Source of the DNA: Escherichia coli
GTDB taxonomy: Bacteria; Pseudomonadota; Gammaproteobacteria; Enterobacterales; Enterobacteriaceae
Assembly (NCBI RefSeq): GCF_001677475.2
Contig: NZ_CP015229.1
Direction: 5' to 3' (one strand)
Length of the DNA: 64,000 nt
Shown piece by piece: positions 7,040-64,000 of the stretch. The position numbers and the translations under genes are program-made. The notes below the pieces were generated by a model. That model was not told where the DNA came from. It was given only the letters and a program-made list of their open reading frames with translations, and made no database searches. The first letter of the stretch is position 1, and every line of letters starts with the position of its first letter.

Positions 7040-7765
7040 ATGGCAACATTAACTGCAAAGAACCTTGCAAAAGCCTATAAAGGCCGTCGCGTGGTAGAAG
7101 ACGTCAGCCTGACCGTCAACTCCGGGGAAATTGTCGGCCTGCTGGGGCCAAACGGTGCCGGTAAGACCACCACTTTCTATATGGTTGTAGGCATTGTGCC
7201 GCGCGATGCGGGCAACATCATTATTGATGATGACGATATCAGTTTGCTGCCTCTGCATGCACGCGCGCGCCGCGGTATCGGCTATCTGCCACAGGAAGCC
7301 TCCATTTTCCGTCGCCTCAGCGTTTACGATAACCTGATGGCGGTACTGCAAATTCGTGACGACTTGTCTGCTGAACAACGTGAAGACCGCGCGAACGAGC
7401 TGATGGAAGAGTTTCACATTGAGCACCTGCGTGACAGCATGGGGCAGTCACTCTCCGGGGGTGAACGTCGCCGTGTAGAAATTGCCCGCGCACTGGCTGC
7501 GAATCCGAAATTTATTCTGCTCGACGAACCGTTTGCCGGGGTTGACCCGATCTCGGTTATCGACATTAAACGCATCATTGAGCACCTGCGCGACAGCGGC
7601 CTGGGCGTGCTGATCACTGACCACAACGTGCGTGAAACACTGGCGGTTTGTGAACGCGCTTATATCGTCAGTCAGGGGCATTTGATCGCCCACGGCACGC
7701 CTACAGAAATCTTACAAGACGAACACGTTAAGCGTGTATACCTTGGGGAAGACTTCAGACTCTGA
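7040..7765 (+). CDS. lptB: LptB, LPS export ABC ATPase
   Basis: ORF track 7040..7765(+), 241 aa; Walker A (GPNGAGKTT). Confidence 0.95.
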
Positions 7766-13792: not shown

Positions 13793-16120
13793 AGTGGCTT
13801 TTGCCACCCACGCTTTCAGTACTTCTACGTCGTGACGCCACTCTTCTTTCATCTCTTCAATCCATTCACCGACGTTATCTTCCCAGGCGGGAAGGTCAGG
13901 AGACTGAATTTGCTGACCCAGCTGTTGCAGATGGCGTAACCCCACTGACCCCGCCGCACCTTTAATTTTATGTCCTTCCTCAACAATGCCTTTTTTATCC
14001 TGCGCCGTCAGATTCGACTCCAGCACGCTGACATAGCCCGGCATCATCTTCTCAAACACCGCTAACCCGTCGGTGATCAGCTTCGGTCCTACAAGTTCGA
14101 GATACTGTTCCAGCATGGGAATATCGAGCAATGCTTCTGATTTACTGTTCTCTTCTGTCGTCACCGTACTCTCCTCATCATCCTGGGTATCCCAGAATTT
14201 CTTGATCATCGCGGTTAGCGCCGGAACAGAAAGCGGCTTACTCAGCACATCATCCATTCCAGCATTGAGGTACTCTTGTTTGTCTTTCAACACGTTAGCG
14301 GTTAAGGCCACCAGCGGCGGTAAATCCTCGCGCGGATAACGCTTCGTCAGTTCACGAGAGATATCCAGCCCGGTCATATCTGGCAACTGAATATCCAGCA
14401 ACACCAGGTCGTATTCGCCCGGTTTAAACATTTCCAGCGCCGCCTTGCCGGTCATGGCGACATCAACGCTGTTACCTAATTTTTCCAGCACAGAGCGTGC
14501 GACAATCACGTTCAGTTCAATATCTTCCACCAGCAGCACATTCAGCGCCGGTAAAGGCATATCGTCTTCATCAAACGCATCATCAACCTCTTCTGCTACC
14601 GACGGTGCGTGGATCGTCAACGTAAAGGTTGAACCTTTGCCCTGTTCGCTGGTAACCGTAATATCGCCGCCCATATTTTTCGCCAGACGACGAGAAACGG
14701 CCAGACCAATACCGGTGCCGGTGGCAGGTTTACCGCCATGACTGTCTTTCACTTGGTAATACATGGCGAAGATTTTATCCAGCTCATCTTGCGGAATGCC
14801 GATACCAGAGTCTTCCACTTCAAAATGCAGCATATCGCCTTCATCGTAGCGCACGCGCACGGTAACCTGGCCTTGCTGGGTGAATTTGACGGCGTTACTG
14901 ATGAGATTCCACAGGATCTGCCGTAAACGCGTCCCGTCGGTAATGACCTGATGCGGTAATGGCAGCGTCGGCTCCAGATTAAAGCGCAATCCTTTCTGTT
15001 GCGCCTGCAATGCGGAGAGATTTTCCAGATCGGCAAGGAAGCTGGTGAAATCAACCGGCTGATTATCAAGCTGGACCTTGCGCCGTTCCATCTTATCCAT
15101 GTCGATAATATCGTTGAAGATATTCCCCAGCGTGACGGCCGAAACATGGATGGTTTTGAGATATTTTTCCTGCTCGGCGGTGAGTTCGGTATCCAGTAGG
15201 ATGCGGCTCAGGCCGACGATACCGTTCAGCGGTGTACGCAATTCGTGACTGATGGTGGAGATAAACGTCGTTTTGTCGCGGCTGGCCCGTTCAAGCGCAT
15301 CCTGATACCGCTTACGCTCGGTAATGTCGCGACCAAAGCCCATCAAACCGTGACGTTTACCCACGCGGTCGTAGTACGGCACTTTACGAATTTCAAAGCA
15401 GGCTTTGCGTCCGTCGGGATAATCCAGCCACTGCTCATAGGTCAGTGACACATTATGACGGAACACTTTTTCATCGGTTTCAATGACTTTCGCAGCGGCT
15501 TCCGGTGAGTAAACATCAGCAGGTTTCAGATGAACCAGTTGTTTTTCGCTTTTTCCGGTCAGCAGCTCCATCGCGCGGTTACAGCCGGAAAACTCTTTAT
15601 CTTCGTTACGATAAAAAACCAGGTCGGGTGAAGCATCAAGGAAGGAACGTAAGAATGAGGATTGCTGCTCGAGCTGAATTTGTGTCTCTTCGCGCTCTTT
15701 GATTTCAATTTTCAGTTGGCCGAAGGTTTCCTGCAGTTCTGCTTCCGCTTTTTCACGAACGGCAATTTCCTGATTTAGCTGGGCAATATTATCTTTTAAC
15801 TGAACGTTGAGGCTCAAATCGCGCTCGCGCATCTCCTCCAGTTTTTGCACCAGCCGTGACAGACGTTGTCGTGACTCCTCCAGTTGCTCGACGACCACCG
15901 ATAGAAAGTAGACCGCCCACGGCGTAATCAGCAAACCAAAGAAGATAGAACGAATAACATCAATGCTTTCGACCTGACCATGCAGCACCATGGTTACCGC
16001 CATTTGTACCACAATGGCAAGAACGACGAGGGCCAGCGCCAGCAACATTGAGAAGCGCACCAGACCTAACTTCATCATCAGGTCAACATAATACTGCGCC
16101 AGCAGACGAATTTGCTTCAT
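13784..16120 (-). CDS. arcB: ArcB, aerobic respiration control sensor histidine kinase
   Basis: ORF track 13784..16120(-), 778 aa; HisKA motif (SHELRTPLN), receiver and HPt domains. Confidence 0.96.
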   Translation of the reverse strand: MKQIRLLAQYYVDLMMKLGLVRFSMLLALALVVLAIVVQMAVTMVLHGQVESIDVIRSIFFGLLITPWAVYFLSVVVEQLEESRQRLSRLVQKLEEMRERDLSLNVQLKDNIAQLNQEIAVREKAEAELQETFGQLKIEIKEREETQIQLEQQSSFLRSFLDASPDLVFYRNEDKEFSGCNRAMELLTGKSEKQLVHLKPADVYSPEAAAKVIETDEKVFRHNVSLTYEQWLDYPDGRKACFEIRKVPYYDRVGKRHGLMGFGRDITERKRYQDALERASRDKTTFISTISHELRTPLNGIVGLSRILLDTELTAEQEKYLKTIHVSAVTLGNIFNDIIDMDKMERRKVQLDNQPVDFTSFLADLENLSALQAQQKGLRFNLEPTLPLPHQVITDGTRLRQILWNLISNAVKFTQQGQVTVRVRYDEGDMLHFEVEDSGIGIPQDELDKIFAMYYQVKDSHGGKPATGTGIGLAVSRRLAKNMGGDITVTSEQGKGSTFTLTIHAPSVAEEVDDAFDEDDMPLPALNVLLVEDIELNVIVARSVLEKLGNSVDVAMTGKAALEMFKPGEYDLVLLDIQLPDMTGLDISRELTKRYPREDLPPLVALTANVLKDKQEYLNAGMDDVLSKPLSVPALTAMIKKFWDTQDDEESTVTTEENSKSEALLDIPMLEQYLELVGPKLITDGLAVFEKMMPGYVSVLESNLTAQDKKGIVEEGHKIKGAAGSVGLRHLQQLGQQIQSPDLPAWEDNVGEWIEEMKEEWRHDVEVLKAWVAKATKK

Positions 16121-17145: not shown

Positions 17146-17726
17146 AATCTGATAGACCGCGCCTTGAAAAGAGGCCAAAGCCTGCCATTTTTAGCTCAAT
17201 TCGGCGATGACCTGGATCAATCGTCCCGGCCTGCTTTTATCAACTGCATAATCAATCAAAATTACCGAAATTTCATGCATAATCACATAAATCACTTTTG
17301 CTTATCTTGTGTCAGATTTTTTTATCTCCTTATGGATTTTAGGCAAAAACAGTAGCATGAAACGTCATTACCAATTAAGGCAGTATAAAATGCTGGCTTT
17401 CTCGTCAGTTCAAGGCAGGATAAGGGTTAACACGCCTTTATGACAGTCAGGAATTGGCTGTTTCTCTAACGACGCCCCTTTTAGCCTTAATTAGAAAATC
17501 TATTTTAATTTCAGTCAATTAATAAAGAATTTTGCGCTAAAGCACATTTCTGTACCAATAAGCTTGCCATTTGACCTGTATCAGCTTTCCCGATAAGTTG
17601 GAAATCCGCTGGAAGCTTTCTGGATGAGCAGCCTGCTCATCATATTTATGCAGTAATTGAGATCCCCTCTTCACCGTATTAACCGATGCGAAAAGGACAA
17701 CAAGGGGGCGAATGCGAGGCGCGCGT

Positions 17727-20700
17727 ATGACACGCAAACCCCGTCGCCATGCTCTTTCTGTGCCCGTGCGCAGCGGTTCGGAAGTGGGGTTCCCGCAGAG
17801 CCTGGGGGAGGTTCACGATATGTTGTACGATAAATCCCTTGAGAGGGATAACTGTGGTTTCGGCCTGATCGCCCACATAGAAGGCGAACCTAGCCACAAG
17901 GTAGTGCGTACTGCAATACACGCACTGGCCCGCATGCAGCACCGTGGCGCGATTCTCGCCGATGGTAAAACCGGTGACGGTTGCGGCTTGCTGTTACAAA
18001 AACCGGATCGCTTTTTTCGCATCGTTGCGCAGGAGCGCGGCTGGCGTTTAGCGAAAAACTACGCCGTCGGGATGCTATTCCTGAATAAAGATCCTGAACT
18101 CGCCGCTGCCGCACGCCGCATCGTTGAAGAAGAGCTGCAACGCGAAACCTTGTCGATTGTGGGCTGGCGTGATGTCCCCACTAACGAAGGCGTGTTGGGT
18201 GAAATCGCCCTCTCCTCTCTGCCACGCATTGAGCAAATTTTTGTGAACGCCCCGGCAGGCTGGCGTCCGCGCGATATGGAGCGCCGTCTGTTTATCGCCC
18301 GCCGCCGCATTGAAAAGCGTCTCGAAGCCGACAAAGACTTCTACGTCTGTAGCCTGTCGAATCTGGTGAACATCTATAAAGGTCTGTGTATGCCGGCGGA
18401 TCTGCCGCGCTTTTATCTGGATCTTGCGGACCTGCGTCTGGAATCGGCCATTTGCTTGTTCCACCAGCGCTTCTCCACGAACACCGTACCGCGCTGGCCG
18501 CTGGCGCAGCCGTTCCGCTATCTGGCGCATAACGGTGAAATCAACACCATCACCGGTAACCGCCAATGGGCGCGTGCGCGTACCTATAAATTCCAGACGC
18601 CGCTTATCCCTGATCTGCACGACGCCGCACCGTTCGTCAACGAAACCGGCTCTGACTCCAGTTCGATGGATAACATGCTGGAACTGCTGCTGGCAGGCGG
18701 GATGGATATCATCCGCGCCATGCGCCTATTAGTACCACCCGCCTGGCAGAACAACCCGGATATGGACCCGGAACTGCGTGCCTTCTTTGACTTTAACTCC
18801 ATGCATATGGAGCCGTGGGATGGCCCGGCGGGCATCGTGATGTCCGATGGTCGTTTTGCCGCCTGTAACCTCGACCGTAACGGTCTGCGTCCGGCGCGCT
18901 ACGTCATCACCAAAGATAAGCTCATCACCTGCGCCTCTGAAGTCGGTATCTGGGATTATCAGCCTGACGAAGTGGTCGAAAAAGGCCGCGTCGGGCCAGG
19001 CGAACTGATGGTTATCGACACCCGCAGTGGGCGTATTCTGCACTCGGCAGAAACCGATGACGATCTGAAAAGCCGCCACCCTTATAAAGAGTGGATGGAG
19101 AAAAACGTCCGCCGCCTGGTACCGTTTGAAGATCTGCCCGATGAAGAAGTGGGTAGCCGCGAACTGGACGACGACACGCTTGCCAGCTACCAGAAACAGT
19201 TTAACTACAGCGCGGAAGAGCTGGACTCCGTAATTCGCGTACTGGGCGAAAACGGTCAGGAAGCGGTCGGATCGATGGGCGATGATACCCCATTCGCCGT
19301 GCTCTCCAGTCAGCCGCGCATTATTTACGACTACTTCCGCCAGCAGTTTGCTCAGGTGACTAACCCGCCAATCGACCCGCTGCGTGAAGCGCATGTTATG
19401 TCGCTCGCCACCAGCATTGGTCGTGAAATGAACGTCTTCTGTGAAGCAGAGGGCCAGGCGCACCGTTTAAGCTTTAAATCGCCGATTCTGCTCTACTCCG
19501 ATTTCAAACAGCTCACGACGATGAAAGAGGAGCACTACCGCGCAGATACGCTGGATATCACCTTTGACGTCACTAAAACCACGCTCGAAGCGACAGTCAA
19601 AGAGCTGTGCGACAAAGCCGAAAAAATGGTACGTAGCGGCACCGTGTTGCTGGTGCTCTCCGACCGGAATATCGCTAAAGATCGCCTGCCGGTTCCGGCT
19701 CCGATGGCGGTTGGCGCGATCCAGACCCGTCTGGTCGATCAAAGCCTGCGCTGCGATGCCAACATCATCGTCGAAACCGCCAGCGCCCGCGATCCGCACC
19801 ATTTCGCCGTGTTGCTGGGCTTCGGTGCGACGGCTATTTATCCGTACCTTGCCTATGAAACGCTGGGCCGTCTGGTAGACACCCACGCGATTGCCAAAGA
19901 TTATCGTACCGTGATGTTGAACTACCGTAACGGCATCAACAAAGGCTTGTACAAAATCATGTCCAAAATGGGCATCTCCACCATCGCCTCTTACCGCTGC
20001 TCGAAACTGTTTGAAGCGGTCGGTCTGCACGATGATGTAGTGGGCCTGTGCTTCCAGGGAGCGGTCAGTCGCATTGGTGGGGCGAGCTTTGAAGACTTCC
20101 AGCAGGATCTGCTGAATCTCTCGAAACGTGCCTGGCTGGCGCGTAAGCCCATCAGCCAGGGCGGCCTGCTGAAATATGTGCACGGCGGCGAATACCACGC
20201 CTACAACCCGGACGTGGTGCGCACGCTGCAACAGGCGGTACAGAGCGGCGAGTATAGCGACTATCAGGAATACGCGAAGCTGGTTAATGAGCGTCCGGCA
20301 ACCACGCTACGCGATCTGCTGGCAATTACGCCGGGTGAAAACGCGGTCAACATTGCTGATGTTGAACCGGCAAGCGAACTGTTTAAACGCTTCGATACCG
20401 CTGCGATGTCTATCGGCGCGTTAAGCCCGGAAGCCCACGAGGCGCTGGCTGAAGCGATGAACAGCATCGGCGGTAACTCGAACTCCGGTGAAGGCGGTGA
20501 AGACCCGGCGCGCTACGGCACTAACAAAGTGTCGCGCATCAAGCAGGTGGCGTCAGGTCGCTTCGGTGTTACTCCGGCGTACCTGGTCAATGCTGACGTC
20601 ATTCAGATTAAAGTCGCCCAGGGCGCGAAGCCGGGCGAAGGCGGTCAGTTGCCAGGTGATAAAGTCACGCCTTACATCGCCAAACTGCGCTATTCGGTGC

Positions 20701-22280
20701 CGGGCGTGACGCTGATCTCCCCGCCGCCGCACCATGATATCTACTCTATCGAGGACTTAGCGCAGCTTATTTTCGACCTCAAGCAGGTTAACCCGAAAGC
20801 GATGATCTCCGTGAAGCTGGTTTCCGAACCGGGCGTAGGCACCATCGCGACTGGCGTGGCAAAAGCTTATGCCGATTTAATCACCATCGCAGGCTATGAC
20901 GGCGGCACCGGCGCAAGTCCGCTTTCATCGGTGAAATACGCAGGCTGTCCGTGGGAACTCGGCCTGGTGGAAACCCAACAGGCGCTGGTTGCCAACGGTT
21001 TACGTCATAAAATTCGTTTGCAGGTTGATGGCGGCCTGAAAACGGGCGTTGATATCATCAAAGCGGCGATTCTCGGCGCAGAAAGCTTCGGCTTCGGCAC
21101 TGGCCCAATGGTCGCGCTCGGTTGTAAATATCTGCGAATTTGCCACCTGAACAACTGCGCCACGGGTGTAGCAACTCAGGATGACAAACTGCGTAAGAAT
21201 CACTATCACGGCCTGCCGTTCAAAGTGACTAATTACTTTGAGTTTATCGCCCGTGAAACCCGCGAACTGATGGCACAGCTGGGCGTAACGCGTCTGGTGG
21301 ATCTGATTGGTCGCACCGACCTGCTGAAAGAGCTGGACGGTTTCACCGCCAAACAGCAGAAACTGGCGCTGTCGAAGCTGCTGGAAACCGCCGAACCGCA
21401 TGCAGGTAAGGCGCTCTACTGTACCGAAAACAATCCGCCGTTTGATAACGGCCTGCTGAACGCGCAGTTGCTGCAACAGGCGAAACCGTTTGTCGATGAA
21501 CGCCAGAGCAAAACCTTCTGGTTCGATATCCGCAACACCGACCGTTCTGTCGGCGCGTCGCTTTCAGGCTATATCGCCCAGACGCACGGCGATCAGGGGC
21601 TGGCAGCCGATCCTATCAAAGCGTACTTCAACGGCACCGCAGGCCAGAGTTTCGGTGTGTGGAACGCGGGCGGCGTGGAACTGTACCTGACCGGGGATGC
21701 CAACGACTATGTCGGTAAAGGCATGGCGGGCGGCTTAATCGCCATTCGTCCTCCGGTTGGTTCCGCCTTCCGCAGCCATGAAGCAAGTATTATCGGCAAC
21801 ACCTGCCTGTATGGCGCGACCGGTGGTCGTCTGTATGCCGCAGGCCGCGCGGGTGAACGTTTCGGCGTGCGTAACTCCGGTGCTATCACCGTGGTAGAAG
21901 GCATTGGCGACAACGGCTGTGAATATATGACGGGTGGTATCGTCTGTATTCTGGGTAAAACCGGCGTTAACTTCGGCGCGGGCATGACCGGCGGCTTCGC
22001 TTACGTTCTCGATGAAAGCGGCGATTTCCGCAAACGCGTTAACCCGGAACTGGTCGAGGTCTTAAGCGTTGACGATCTGGCGATCCATGAAGAGCATCTG
22101 CGTGGTCTTATCACCGAGCATGTTCAGCATACTGGCTCTCAGCGCGGTGAAGAGATTCTGGCGAACTGGTCAACCTTCGCCACTAAATTTGCGCTGGTTA
22201 AACCGAAGTCCAGTGATGTAAAAGCACTGCTGGGTCACCGTAGTCGTAGCGCAGCAGAGTTGCGCGTGCAGGCGCAGTAA
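17727..22280 (+). CDS. gltB: Glutamate synthase (NADPH) large subunit
   Basis: ORF track 17712..22280(+) trimmed to MTRKPRRHALSV...; the mature N-terminal Cys of the amidotransferase domain sits in ...ERDNCGFGLIAHIEG. Confidence 0.95.
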   Translation: MTRKPRRHALSVPVRSGSEVGFPQSLGEVHDMLYDKSLERDNCGFGLIAHIEGEPSHKVVRTAIHALARMQHRGAILADGKTGDGCGLLLQKPDRFFRIVAQERGWRLAKNYAVGMLFLNKDPELAAAARRIVEEELQRETLSIVGWRDVPTNEGVLGEIALSSLPRIEQIFVNAPAGWRPRDMERRLFIARRRIEKRLEADKDFYVCSLSNLVNIYKGLCMPADLPRFYLDLADLRLESAICLFHQRFSTNTVPRWPLAQPFRYLAHNGEINTITGNRQWARARTYKFQTPLIPDLHDAAPFVNETGSDSSSMDNMLELLLAGGMDIIRAMRLLVPPAWQNNPDMDPELRAFFDFNSMHMEPWDGPAGIVMSDGRFAACNLDRNGLRPARYVITKDKLITCASEVGIWDYQPDEVVEKGRVGPGELMVIDTRSGRILHSAETDDDLKSRHPYKEWMEKNVRRLVPFEDLPDEEVGSRELDDDTLASYQKQFNYSAEELDSVIRVLGENGQEAVGSMGDDTPFAVLSSQPRIIYDYFRQQFAQVTNPPIDPLREAHVMSLATSIGREMNVFCEAEGQAHRLSFKSPILLYSDFKQLTTMKEEHYRADTLDITFDVTKTTLEATVKELCDKAEKMVRSGTVLLVLSDRNIAKDRLPVPAPMAVGAIQTRLVDQSLRCDANIIVETASARDPHHFAVLLGFGATAIYPYLAYETLGRLVDTHAIAKDYRTVMLNYRNGINKGLYKIMSKMGISTIASYRCSKLFEAVGLHDDVVGLCFQGAVSRIGGASFEDFQQDLLNLSKRAWLARKPISQGGLLKYVHGGEYHAYNPDVVRTLQQAVQSGEYSDYQEYAKLVNERPATTLRDLLAITPGENAVNIADVEPASELFKRFDTAAMSIGALSPEAHEALAEAMNSIGGNSNSGEGGEDPARYGTNKVSRIKQVASGRFGVTPAYLVNADVIQIKVAQGAKPGEGGQLPGDKVTPYIAKLRYSVPGVTLISPPPHHDIYSIEDLAQLIFDLKQVNPKAMISVKLVSEPGVGTIATGVAKAYADLITIAGYDGGTGASPLSSVKYAGCPWELGLVETQQALVANGLRHKIRLQVDGGLKTGVDIIKAAILGAESFGFGTGPMVALGCKYLRICHLNNCATGVATQDDKLRKNHYHGLPFKVTNYFEFIARETRELMAQLGVTRLVDLIGRTDLLKELDGFTAKQQKLALSKLLETAEPHAGKALYCTENNPPFDNGLLNAQLLQQAKPFVDERQSKTFWFDIRNTDRSVGASLSGYIAQTHGDQGLAADPIKAYFNGTAGQSFGVWNAGGVELYLTGDANDYVGKGMAGGLIAIRPPVGSAFRSHEASIIGNTCLYGATGGRLYAAGRAGERFGVRNSGAITVVEGIGDNGCEYMTGGIVCILGKTGVNFGAGMTGGFAYVLDESGDFRKRVNPELVEVLSVDDLAIHEEHLRGLITEHVQHTGSQRGEEILANWSTFATKFALVKPKSSDVKALLGHRSRSAAELRVQAQ

Positions 22281-23711
<1,431 letters not shown>

Positions 23712-23720
23712 GCTCTGTCC

Positions 23721-23753
23721 CAGCGCCGCCTCCTCAGAAAAGAGTCGGCGCTG
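23721..23753 (+). terminator. Putative gltBD terminator hairpin (approximate coordinates)
   Basis: Inverted repeat cagcgccg...cggcgctg starting about 10 bp after the gltD stop; the following T-run is weak. Confidence 0.4.
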
Positions 23754-23894
23754 AAATTCTCCTTTCTTTCTGGAAAGCGCCTCGCATAATCTGAAGAAAA
23801 CCAATGTAATACGCTCATCTGGATTGTTACCGGTAGATGCCCGGCGTATAGCTGATTCCATTATTCAACGCAGCGCCATATAAAGGGACAGATA

Positions 23895-25022
23895 ATGGAA
23901 TCGCTCTCAGAGAGAACCTCAACAGGCTACCAGCAAATCCACGACGGTATTATTCATCTGGTCGATAGCGCACGGACGGAAACGGTACGTAGCGTTAACG
24001 CGCTGATGACCGCGACATACTGGGAAATTGGCCGACGAATTGTCGAATTTGAACAAGGTGGCGAGGCCAGGGCTGCGTATGGTGCGCAGCTAATCAAGCG
24101 ACTATCAAAGGATTTAAGTCTAAGGTATAAGCGTGGGTTCTCTGCAAAAAACTTACGCCAAATGAGGCTTTTTTACCTCTTTTTTCAACATGTTGAAATT
24201 CGCCAGACAGTGTCTGGCGAATTAACACCATTGGGAATTCCGCAGACACCATCTGCAGAATTCCCATCGGCAAAGATTTGGCAGACGCTGTCTGCCAAAT
24301 CTTTCCCCCTGCCCTGGTCCACCTACGTCCGTTTACTTTCCGTTAAAAACGCTGACGCCCGCAGCTTTTATGAAAAAGAGACGCTCCGCTGTGGCTAGTC
24401 TGTTCGCCAGCTAGAACGGCAAATTGCGACCCAATTTTATGAGCGAACACTACTGTCACATGACAAATCAGCCATGCTGCAACAACATGCTCCTGCCGAG
24501 ACGCATATTCTTCCGCAACAGGCGATACGCGATCCTTTTGTGCTTGAATTTCTGGAGTTGAAAGATGAATACTCAGAATCCGATTTTGAGGAGGCGCTGA
24601 TCAACCACCTGATGGATTTCATGCTGGAACTTGGGGATGATTTTGCCTTTGTTGGTCGACAGCGAAGGTTACGCATTGATGACAACTGGTTTCGTGTCGA
24701 TCTGCTGTTTTTCCACCGCCGTTTACGCTGCCTGCTAATCGTCGATCTAAAAGTGGGCAAATTCAGCTATAGCGATGCCGGACAGATGAATATGTATCTC
24801 AACTACGCCAAAGAGCACTGGACGCTACCGGATGAAAATCCGCCCATCGGTCTGGTTCTCTGTGCAGAGAAAGGAGTCGGAGAAGCGCATTATGCACTGG
24901 CTGGTTTGCCTAACACCGTTCTGGCGAGTGAATATAAGATGCAACTACCTGATGAAAAACGACTCGCGGATGAACTCGTTCGAACACAGGCGGTGTTAGA
25001 GGAAGGCTATAGACGCCGTTAA
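23895..25022 (+). pseudogene. yhcG: yhcG (DUF1016 / PD-(D/E)xK nuclease-like family) interrupted by one in-frame TAG codon
   Basis: Track ORFs 23895..24398 (167 aa) and 24474..25022 (182 aa) are in the same frame. The only interruption is TAG at 24396..24398 (sequence tgt ggc TAG tct gtt cgc). Read-through length is about 375 aa, the size I recall for intact K-12 YhcG. Confidence 0.8.
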
Positions 25023-25081
25023 TTTCAGCGGTTTCGAATTCTCCAGACACTGTCTGGAGAATCTTTAAAACGAACTAAATT

Positions 25082-26414
<1,333 letters not shown>

Positions 26415-48106: not shown

Positions 48107-48135
48107 TTAGTTACTGCAGTAGAGGATTTTTTACG

Positions 48136-48173
48136 GCTGCCGGATGCAGCGTGAACGCCCTATCCGGCCTACG
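48136..48173. repeat. REP element between tldD and yhdP (approximate coordinates)
   Basis: gctgccggatgcagcgtgaacgccctatccggcctacg closely matches the E. coli REP consensus. Confidence 0.7.
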
Positions 48174-48246
48174 GTTATGTTCTGGCTCGTTGGCCTTTGG
48201 CAACGATTATCATATGAGATTGGGGCAATTACGCGCCCTCGTCAAA

Positions 48247-63055: not shown

Positions 63056-63101
63056 TTTGTGACGCGCGGTGTTTTCATCGCGCTTAGCAAAGAACGTAAT
63101 C

Positions 63102-63136
63102 AACGCCGGGCCTGTTAACGCTGCCCGGCGTTTTTA
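63102..63136 (+). terminator. accBC rho-independent terminator (approximate coordinates)
   Basis: aacgccgggcctgttaacgctgcccggcgtt hairpin followed by tttttatt, about 45 bp after the accC stop. Confidence 0.65.
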
Positions 63137-63146
63137 TTGCCGTTAG

Positions 63147-64000
63147 CTAACGGTAGCCTGCAATTTCCGCTTTCAACGCGCTCATTTCAGCATCGCCATC
63201 AACAATTCCCAGCTCAAAGCAGTATTTCTTTGTTTCCCCTGGCTCTATAAAGGGCAGACGCCCCTGCGCTCGTTCTTTATCACGACCGTCAGGAAAACTA
63301 TTGCTGACCTCCAGCCCCATAACATATTCACCCGCGCCTAAATTTTTCCACTGGATAAAGTTGGGTAGCTGCATGGTGTCGAATTTCTCGTAAATTCCCC
63401 ACCCCAGTTCAGCGTTCACCAGCGCAATTTTACTCATCCCCTGACTGTCGCTATTCAAGGTGAGATAGTAAACCTGCTCGTCAAAACCGGGCTGTGGGGT
63501 ACAAATCTCCAGATGACTGGTTAACCCTTCCGCCGCATGCGGAGTTCGTGGCGTTACGCTTTTAGCCGACAGCAAGATTTCTGCCTGTGGCGATAATAAA
63601 GGCCAGCCGTAATTAAAGTGATAAAGAATTTGCAGCGGCTGGCGGGTGAAACCATGATTAGTCACCTCGTCTTCAATGCGCAGCACATTTTCGCCATAAC
63701 GGCAGCGAATGGTCCTTTCCAGCGTCAGATTTTCACCGAACAATCGCGTTTCCCGTACTTTGCCATTGATGACAAATTCAATGCCGTCGTCGGTCCGTTC
63801 TGTGCGATACCCCACCTCTTCTGCTGGAGTCGCAGCCAAACGCCCATGTAACCCCAGCGTTTCTCCTTCATCCTCACAGGGCGTGCCAATGTAGCTAAGT
63901 CCGCAGGTAGTCAGTAACCCCGCGTAAAAGCTACGTAAAAACCCGTTGCCCTGAGACTCGAAAAAAGCGGGGGCGACAATGCCGTTGGGGGTGATAAAAG
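63147..64000 (-). CDS. Hypothetical protein, possibly galactose-mutarotase-like/DUF4432-type; partial, with the 5' end beyond the window
   Basis: Track ORF 63147..63839(-) is the tail of a longer frame: I translated the minus strand by hand through to position 64000 and found no stop. Not a K-12 gene at this position (K-12 has yhdT/panF on the plus strand after accC). Family assignment is from motif impression only. Confidence 0.6.
   Translation of the reverse strand, partial: FITPNGIVAPAFFESQGNGFLRSFYAGLLTTCGLSYIGTPCEDEGETLGLHGRLAATPAEEVGYRTERTDDGIEFVINGKVRETRLFGENLTLERTIRCRYGENVLRIEDEVTNHGFTRQPLQILYHFNYGWPLLSPQAEILLSAKSVTPRTPHAAEGLTSHLEICTPQPGFDEQVYYLTLNSDSQGMSKIALVNAELGWGIYEKFDTMQLPNFIQWKNLGAGEYVMGLEVSNSFPDGRDKERAQGRLPFIEPGETKKYCFELGIVDGDAEMSALKAEIAGYR

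Follow-up and report, generated by a model that had tools for sequence, protein, structure and literature searches.

In Escherichia coli K-12 the glutamate synthase gene gltD is followed by gltF and a set of yhc fimbrial genes, whereas in the E. coli strain analysed here it is followed directly by yhcG. This locus raises the question of whether genes were lost from the strain or gained by K-12. We analysed a 64-kb stretch of the genome, hereafter named the window. A sequence-only reading had placed about 183 bp with a hairpin between the gltD stop and the yhcG start. Indeed, the open reading frame (ORF) list of the window gives a distance of exactly 183 bp, with the hairpin inside it. The features needed to follow the comparison are:

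17712–22280, + strand: gltB (window ORF)
22293–23711, + strand: gltD, glutamate synthase small subunit, intact, 472 aa (ORF list; stop TAA at 23709–23711)
23712–23894, + strand: gltD–yhcG intergenic spacer, 183 bp (ORF boundaries and homologous spacers in relatives)
23714–23766, + strand: 53-bp stretch without a blastn counterpart in K-12 (blastn breakpoints and side-by-side sequences)
23721–23753, + strand: hairpin just 3′ of the gltD stop (RNA fold and inverted repeat I9)
23767–23894, + strand: yhcG upstream region and ribosome-binding site (alignments)
25082–25546, − strand: nanQ (yhcH), last gene of the convergent nan operon (ORF, 99% amino acid identity to K-12 NanQ)

Both gltB and gltD are intact in the window. 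The encoded GltD is 99% identical to K-12 GltD at the amino acid level, and the exact protein was found in public collections under the name GltD. The next ORF on the + strand begins with an ATG at 23895 and shows 97% identity to K-12 YhcG; its ribosome-binding site, AAGGGA, lies 7 nt before the ATG. A promoter and terminator consensus scan of 23600–24000 called no sigma-70 consensus match. Downstream of yhcG runs the convergent series nanQ-nanK-nanE-nanT-nanA-nanR, whose first member forms the right-hand neighbour of the variable gltD–nanQ locus.

The MG1655 record agrees with the K-12 order given in the earlier reading: gltD, gltF, yhcA, yhcD, yhcE (split by IS5), yhcF and yhcG, with 7,210 bp from the gltD stop to the yhcG start. 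The flanking genes of K-12 are collinear with the window, and the gltD stop and the yhcG start are at the same places. Alignment to K-12 had been proposed as a check, and direct adjacency of gltD and yhcG there would have removed the claim; the two genes are not adjacent in K-12. The left breakpoint in blastn pairs window position 23713, two bases past the gltD stop, with position 7619 of the K-12 locus (L001), and the right breakpoint pairs 23767 with 14699. Thus 53 bp of the window (23714–23766) occupy the place of 7,079 bp in K-12, comprising gltF-yhcADEF and IS5. The difference between the two is a replacement of 53 bp versus 7,079 bp, and because the 53 bp are absent from K-12 the window cannot have arisen by deletion from the K-12 arrangement. 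To the right of the breakpoint, window 23767–23894 is homologous to the yhcF–yhcG spacer of K-12, with a divergence far above that of the flanking genes.

The junction itself was described earlier as clean, and blastn and inverted-repeat analysis detected no IS remnant, no direct repeats and no fragment of the K-12 segment there. When the 7,079-bp K-12 segment was compared with the window by blastn, the sole match was a 29-nt palindrome. Consistently, tblastn found no homologues of GltF, YhcA, YhcD, YhcE or YhcF in the 64-kb window (best E = 0.004 over 35 residues). The earlier statements that the glt operon has two genes and that the K-12 fimbrial genes are not at this place are correct. The window carries no deletion scar: gltD and the 5′ end of yhcG are complete, with neither IS elements nor repeats.

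One could still propose that an ancestor of this strain carried gltF-yhcADEF and that a clean deletion removed it, given that K-12 and about 21–24% of complete E. coli genomes have these genes at precisely this place and that deletions of the segment do occur. Two strains, ECCWS199 and SC516, are IS1-mediated deletion derivatives of the K-12 type and, like the window, are without gltF-yhcADEF. However, they retain 40 or 164 nt of the left end of the segment, an IS1 and a 5′-truncated yhcG, none of which is found in the window. Since the known deletions leave such traces, since the 53 bp of the window, hairpin included, are missing from K-12, and since the same spacer is present in E. albertii, another Escherichia species, Pseudocitrobacter and Salmonella, we regard a clean deletion as very improbable. 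An assembly artefact, in which the region was collapsed or mis-joined to give the short spacer, has nothing in its favour beyond the general possibility. Thousands of complete genomes show the same arrangement, and two independent public assemblies (Logan SRR24464887 and ERR3309126) are 100% identical to the window across the junction and the locus, over 6.5 and 4.1 kb, so this idea can practically be dismissed.

We determined how often each arrangement occurs among 5,426 complete E. coli genomes. A junction-spanning query, window 23200–24400, which was required to be covered in one piece, detected the window-type spacer in 3,140 of them (~58%); with a longer query covering the whole yhcG region the count was 2,415. 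The left 4.9 kb of the K-12 segment gave any match in 1,293 genomes and at least 80% coverage in 1,120 (about 21–24%). In a further 947 genomes (~17%), typical of ST131, gltD is followed after 67 bp by nanQ without yhcG, and an additional variant carries a more diverged yhcG allele. Direct adjacency of gltD and yhcG is the commonest state in E. coli, and the K-12 arrangement is a minority. The comparison across E. coli that the earlier reading had called for shows that the polymorphism is real and that the arrangement of this strain is not unusual. Likewise, its description of the genes as absent holds insofar as the K-12 genes are not here, while the framing as missing genes does not, as the window state is the majority state and is shared with outgroups.

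Several strains illustrate these alleles. O157:H7, O55:H7 and strain N3 (RefSeq) have the same gene order, 183-bp spacer and hairpin as the window. E. coli B/BL21(DE3) shares the gltD-proximal spacer and hairpin and has no gltF or yhc genes; unlike in the window, its yhcG is broken off and followed by ~470 bp of unrelated A+T-rich DNA. This BL21-type insert (L004, 7100–7570) holds a 101-aa ORF annotated as 'transposase', which had no Pfam or NCBIfam match. The B2/ST131 type also has no gltF or yhc genes, and its gltD and nanQ are convergent; unlike the window, it has no yhcG. Its 67-bp spacer contains one palindrome of a type described below, and in front of it stand the 12 nt found after gltD in K-12.

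Over a core stretch of 12 kb, identity to the window reached at most 98.8% among complete RefSeq E. coli genomes, and the figure around gltD–yhcG was 97.4%; the best genomes with the gltD-yhcG-nanQ order are only 97.3–97.4% identical at the locus. As the best identity does not exceed 98.8%, the strain comes from a lineage of E. coli of which few genomes are available. Among E. coli strains, gltD and the 3′ part of gltB are unusually mosaic, with 200-bp windows of 90–100% identity when window positions 20000–23711 are compared with the loci L001–L005, which suggests from the alignments that recombination around the locus is frequent. Apart from such differences, the 64-kb window keeps the gene order of K-12 and contains no IS element, for which reason a Shigella origin, considered in view of a pseudogene described below, was rejected. 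Two further differences from K-12 were observed away from this locus. At 63056–64000 the K-12 match ends after the accC stop, where K-12 has yhdT-panF, and the window has instead an ORF of 230 aa or more on the − strand, representing another presence/absence difference. The tldD–yhdP spacer (window ~48133–48196) is ~210 bp shorter than that of K-12, which has the extra sequence 3392133–3392344.

To obtain the direction of change we turned to outgroups. In a GltD scan of species-representative genomes, E. albertii displayed the window-type spacer with an identical hairpin, and so did a second Escherichia genome (L007) that is 92.5% identical to the window. Pseudocitrobacter sp. 73 has the order gltB-gltD-(182 bp)-yhcG-nanQ and Salmonella enterica the order gltB-gltD-(207 bp)-yhcG-codB; both spacers are alignable with that of the window, the latter more loosely. 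Homologous spacers were identified in E. coli N3, BL21, E. albertii, Escherichia sp. L007, Pseudocitrobacter sp. 73 and Salmonella enterica, and the spacer of the window can be aligned without interruption, end to end, with those of E. albertii, L007 and Pseudocitrobacter sp. 73. In other Enterobacteriaceae gltD lies beside nanQ or unrelated genes, and gltF was present in none examined.

The K-12 segment differs from its surroundings in composition, with a GC content of 43% (32% in the gltD–gltF spacer) versus 54–57% in the flanks. It is also strikingly uniform: 1,288 of the 1,293 carriers are at least 99% identical to it, over the 4.9 kb used as query, whereas gltD itself varies by 2–8% among E. 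coli lineages. The outgroup spacers, the low GC content and the near-identical carriers together indicate that the fimbrial segment was gained and that the spacer of the window was never occupied.

That the presence or absence of gltF-yhcADEF is polymorphic is already published. Wurpel et al. 2013 (PMC3559732) call Yhc a fimbrial type that is sporadic and 'highly under-represented' and leave undecided whether it is an old relic or was acquired recently, and BL21(DE3) is reported to have no gltF beside gltBD (Kim et al. 2018, PMC6150544). In the scheme of Nuccio and Baumler, cited in PMC5216030 and PMC3559732, Yhc is the only beta-class chaperone-usher (beta-CU) locus of E. coli. Del Canto et al. 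2017 found the yhc locus, gltF included as a putative subunit, only in phylogroup A strains (PMC5216030).

An ancient cluster at this site, lost in most lineages so that the window spacer would be derived but old, is the possibility raised in PMC3559732. It gains some support from related beta-CU clusters beside gltD in Enterobacter and from the first ~90 nt of the K-12 segment, which resemble the gltD-downstream spacer of a Pseudocitrobacter genome. An old cluster is difficult to reconcile with the near identity of the carriers, the restriction to phylogroup A, the low GC content of the segment and a window-type spacer common to species outside E. coli. We therefore consider an ancient cluster very improbable. 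In Enterobacter asburiae and E. cloacae a related beta-CU cluster lies ~50 bp after gltD in the opposite orientation (L014 11467–17543 and L015 12009–15919, respectively), with amino acid identities of 49% and 41% for YhcD and 59% and 47% for YhcA, and with several DUF1120 genes. Their position beside gltD means that this site may attract beta-class clusters repeatedly; an old association of such clusters with the site is possible.

Collectively, we favour the reading, at a probability of roughly 90%, that the spacer is intact and ancestral with nothing deleted, that the K-12 block is an acquired segment present in a minority of E. coli, and that gltBD without gltF is the norm. The 183-bp stretch would then be the ancestral spacer between a two-gene gltBD operon and the separate gene yhcG, made up of a hairpin, presumably a terminating or stabilising structure of the gltBD transcript, and then of the yhcG upstream region with its ribosome-binding site. 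The K-12 genes gltF-yhcA-yhcD-yhcE-yhcF would be a low-GC beta-class chaperone-usher segment, which a sublineage of E. coli most likely acquired from a diverged donor among the enterobacteria, through homologous recombination. Its arrival would have replaced ~53 bp of the spacer, making the event a replacement and not a simple insertion.

We examined the ends of the K-12 segment for signs of how it arrived. An 8-bp direct repeat, TAACAATG, flanks it at L001 7624–7631, directly after the gltD-proximal 6 nt, and at 14644–14651, directly after the yhcF stop. A target-site duplication was considered and rejected, as the predicted empty site (gltD-GCGAGGTAACAATG-CCGGACAGG...-yhcG) occurred in 0 of the 5,426 E. 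coli genomes. Nor is the occupied allele equal to the empty allele plus an insert with duplicated target, since K-12 replaces the 53 bp. The TAACAATG repeat may be due to chance or may have a matching empty site outside E. coli. Only 9 differences separate K-12 and BL21 in the last 750 bp of gltD, and for this reason the left crossover could not be located. Divergence near the segment was likewise discarded as proof of co-imported flanks because the gltD side is too similar between K-12 and BL21. On the other side, the yhcG upstream region on the K-12 segment diverges from that of the window about as much as those of other genera do; judged from the alignments, this strong divergence fits an import, short of proof.

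GltF and YhcF are both annotated as DUF1120, match the same NCBIfam models and share ~30% identity. Thus gltF, like yhcF, encodes a DUF1120 subunit of fimbrial type and is not a functional part of glutamate synthase, an enzyme that requires GltB and GltD alone. Work by Goss et al. in 2001 reportedly gave gltF no part in nitrogen regulation, and the gene is reported to be absent from Klebsiella aerogenes. With about three quarters of E. coli being without gltF, the gene is dispensable for the glt operon. That gltF might help to regulate nitrogen metabolism was suggested in 1992, according to PMC6150544. If gltF arrived as one DUF1120 subunit gene of the fimbrial cluster, a gltBD operon without it would be the normal state.

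The hairpin just after gltD folds to −21.1 kcal/mol (z = −2.4), and 3 of 200 shuffles folded equally well. It comprises a stem of 8 bp, CAGCGCCG/CGGCGCTG, with 7 G-C pairs, and three further inner pairs (CTC/GAG). The stem is G+C-rich, as in an intrinsic terminator, whereas the short loop and U-tract of such a terminator are lacking: a 9-nt apical loop follows an internal mismatch, and the tail reads AAAUUCUCCUUUCUUUC. A simple terminator scan of 23600–24000 did not call the hairpin. Salmonella has a hairpin of different sequence at the same place, and in Pseudocitrobacter sp. 73 the inner stem is paired differently. From this position, conserved across genera, we infer that the hairpin is probably the 3′ end or terminator structure of the gltBD mRNA; a terminator role is put no more strongly given the missing clean U-tract, the large loop and the negative scan.

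The neighbouring gene yhcG, in which the earlier reading had overlooked an in-frame stop codon, does not have an intact reading frame:

23895–25022, + strand: yhcG (DUF1016_N and YhcG_C PDDEXK nuclease), pseudogene; translation with internal stop, ORFs of 167 and 182 aa
24396–24398, + strand: amber TAG for the Trp168 codon TGG (window GGC TAG TCT versus K-12 GGC TGG TCT)

Trp168 is nearly invariant, being Trp in K-12 and in all aligned homologues, and the amber codon additionally inactivates yhcG in this strain. The yhcG of strain N3 is a pseudogene too, caused by a frameshift, and so the lesion in the window is a different one. The same 167-aa product is encoded on at least 50 public contigs, and the two public assemblies identical to the window also carry it. 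The amber codon is therefore a lineage marker and no sequencing error.

Pfam analysis of K-12 YhcG identified the DUF1016_N and YhcG_C domains at residues 19–184 and 208–360, and in the identical public contigs the first ORF half has PF17761 and the second PF06250. PADLOC assigns YhcG to PDC-S02, a family of candidate defence genes (E = 2e-131). A Foldseek search with the YhcG model showed that the nuclease domain resembles NucS/EndoMS and Can2; no match was obtained for the N-terminal domain. The likeness to NucS/EndoMS agrees with the Holliday-junction-resolvase-like assignment by Kosinski et al. 2005 (PMC1189080). No PDB sequence-search match, solved structure or NCBIfam model was found for YhcG.

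The palindrome that matched the K-12 segment proved to be part of a recurrent element of this locus. Four copies of a ~27-nt palindrome of the type AATTCGCCAGACAGTGTCTGGCGAATT, hereafter P, are present in the window, all of them in or next to yhcG and none elsewhere (no strand is assigned):

24197–24223: P1 (AATTCGCCAGACAGTGTCTGGCGAATT), inside yhcG (inverted-repeat and fold analysis)
24236–24262: P2, imperfect, inside yhcG (inverted-repeat and fold analysis)
24276–24300: P3, inside yhcG; the BL21-type allele breaks exactly after it
25037–25063: P4, between the convergent yhcG and nanQ stops (RNA fold)

P1–P3 form a tandem at 24197–24300 with a 39-nt period, encode I-x-Q-T-x-S-x-E/K three times and together fold to −64.5 kcal/mol (z = −12). 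P4 folds to −16.8 kcal/mol on the + strand and −19.6 kcal/mol on the − strand. Further copies were detected at L003 9525–9551, L001 (K-12) 7632–7658 and L010 11451–11477. P marks the left edge of the K-12 segment, directly behind gltD, forms the core of the 67-bp gltD–nanQ spacer of ST131 and occurs downstream of gltD in a Pseudocitrobacter genome without yhcG. The yhcG of E. albertii is deleted between an internal and a downstream copy of P, and yhcG alleles differ by one to three 39-nt P units.

The REP/BIME and Rickettsia palindromic elements are likewise short palindromes able to form hairpins, and the rickettsial ones can lie in frame within genes. We considered P1–P4 as dispersed repeats of the REP/BIME type and rejected this, as an E. 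coli genome contains P at 2 places in the median and at no more than 5, all of them, among the matches listed, at this locus. No copy was found elsewhere in 1.77 Mb of loci. REP/BIME elements have many dispersed extragenic copies, whereas P is not dispersed and three of its four window copies are in coding sequence. P differs from both kinds of element in occupying one fixed position of one gene family across phyla.

This last property emerged from a sample of 38 DUF1016 genes (L093–L130) on plasmids and viral contigs from Burkholderia, Pseudomonas, Bacteroidota, Fusobacteriota and others, with protein identities of 31–62%. In ~30 of the 38 loci the strongest or second strongest palindrome maps to YhcG residues ~99–128, and a CASTG-centred palindrome is found at that position in almost all of the 34 distinct regions. 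Synonymous-codon shuffling attained the observed arm length in 0 of 300 trials for 19 of these 34 regions, and in at most 2 for most of the others. Across 29 aligned copies the centre C-A-S-T-G is invariant and 10 of the 13 arm pairs have changed on both sides; the arms pair in 92% of cells, compared with at most 42% when the partner is slid. As the 29 copies were chosen for being palindromic, unbiased support comes from the recurrence of the position and from the shuffle test.

In the AlphaFold model of YhcG, the residues encoded by the palindrome (103–127) form a low-confidence loop (pLDDT < 50), predicted to be disordered, between helices of the N-terminal domain. An Rfam scan of yhcG and the palindromes returned one chance-level miRNA match and no family, and the searchable literature yielded no link between DUF1016/YhcG and a palindrome. 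With its fixed loop and free stem, P looks like a selected nucleic-acid structure, to go by the sequence comparisons. Two other palindromes were noted in the sample. The viral contigs L124 (~319–349) and L128 (~320–350) have a second copy at the start of the extended ORF or in the upstream region, which would fit an operator-like role. In L116–L123, one DUF1016 subgroup, a second perfect G+C-rich palindrome (e.g. TCGAGGCGGCGCGCAAGCGCGCCGCCTCGA) occurs at about YhcG residue 23.

We tentatively raise the possibility, which we hold to be rather doubtful, that the gltD–nanQ spot is organised around an undescribed cis element of DUF1016 genes: a nuclease-recognised palindrome whose copies recombine into alleles. 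P would form a hairpin or cruciform recognised by the NucS/Hjc-like structure-specific nuclease of the family, and this recognition would serve autoregulation or self-recognition. Recombination between P copies would create the solo P without yhcG (in B2 and a Pseudocitrobacter genome), the truncation in E. albertii, the BL21 break after P3 and the yhcG alleles with one to three units.

Our results mean that K-12 is not the reference state at this locus. The name 'gltBDF' reflects a peculiarity of K-12 and phylogroup A, gltF is part of a fimbrial cluster that is accessory, and in most E. coli the glutamate synthase operon has just two genes. For the question left by Wurpel et al. 2013 (PMC3559732), the allele counts and outgroup spacers favour 'gain', by virtue of near-identical carriers and an empty spacer common to other genera. 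The palindrome of the yhcG family is the one item here that may merit separate work. It may account for the high variability of the gltD–nanQ spot, and its location in the gene of a candidate defence nuclease points to a possible DNA or RNA ligand for a family without known function.
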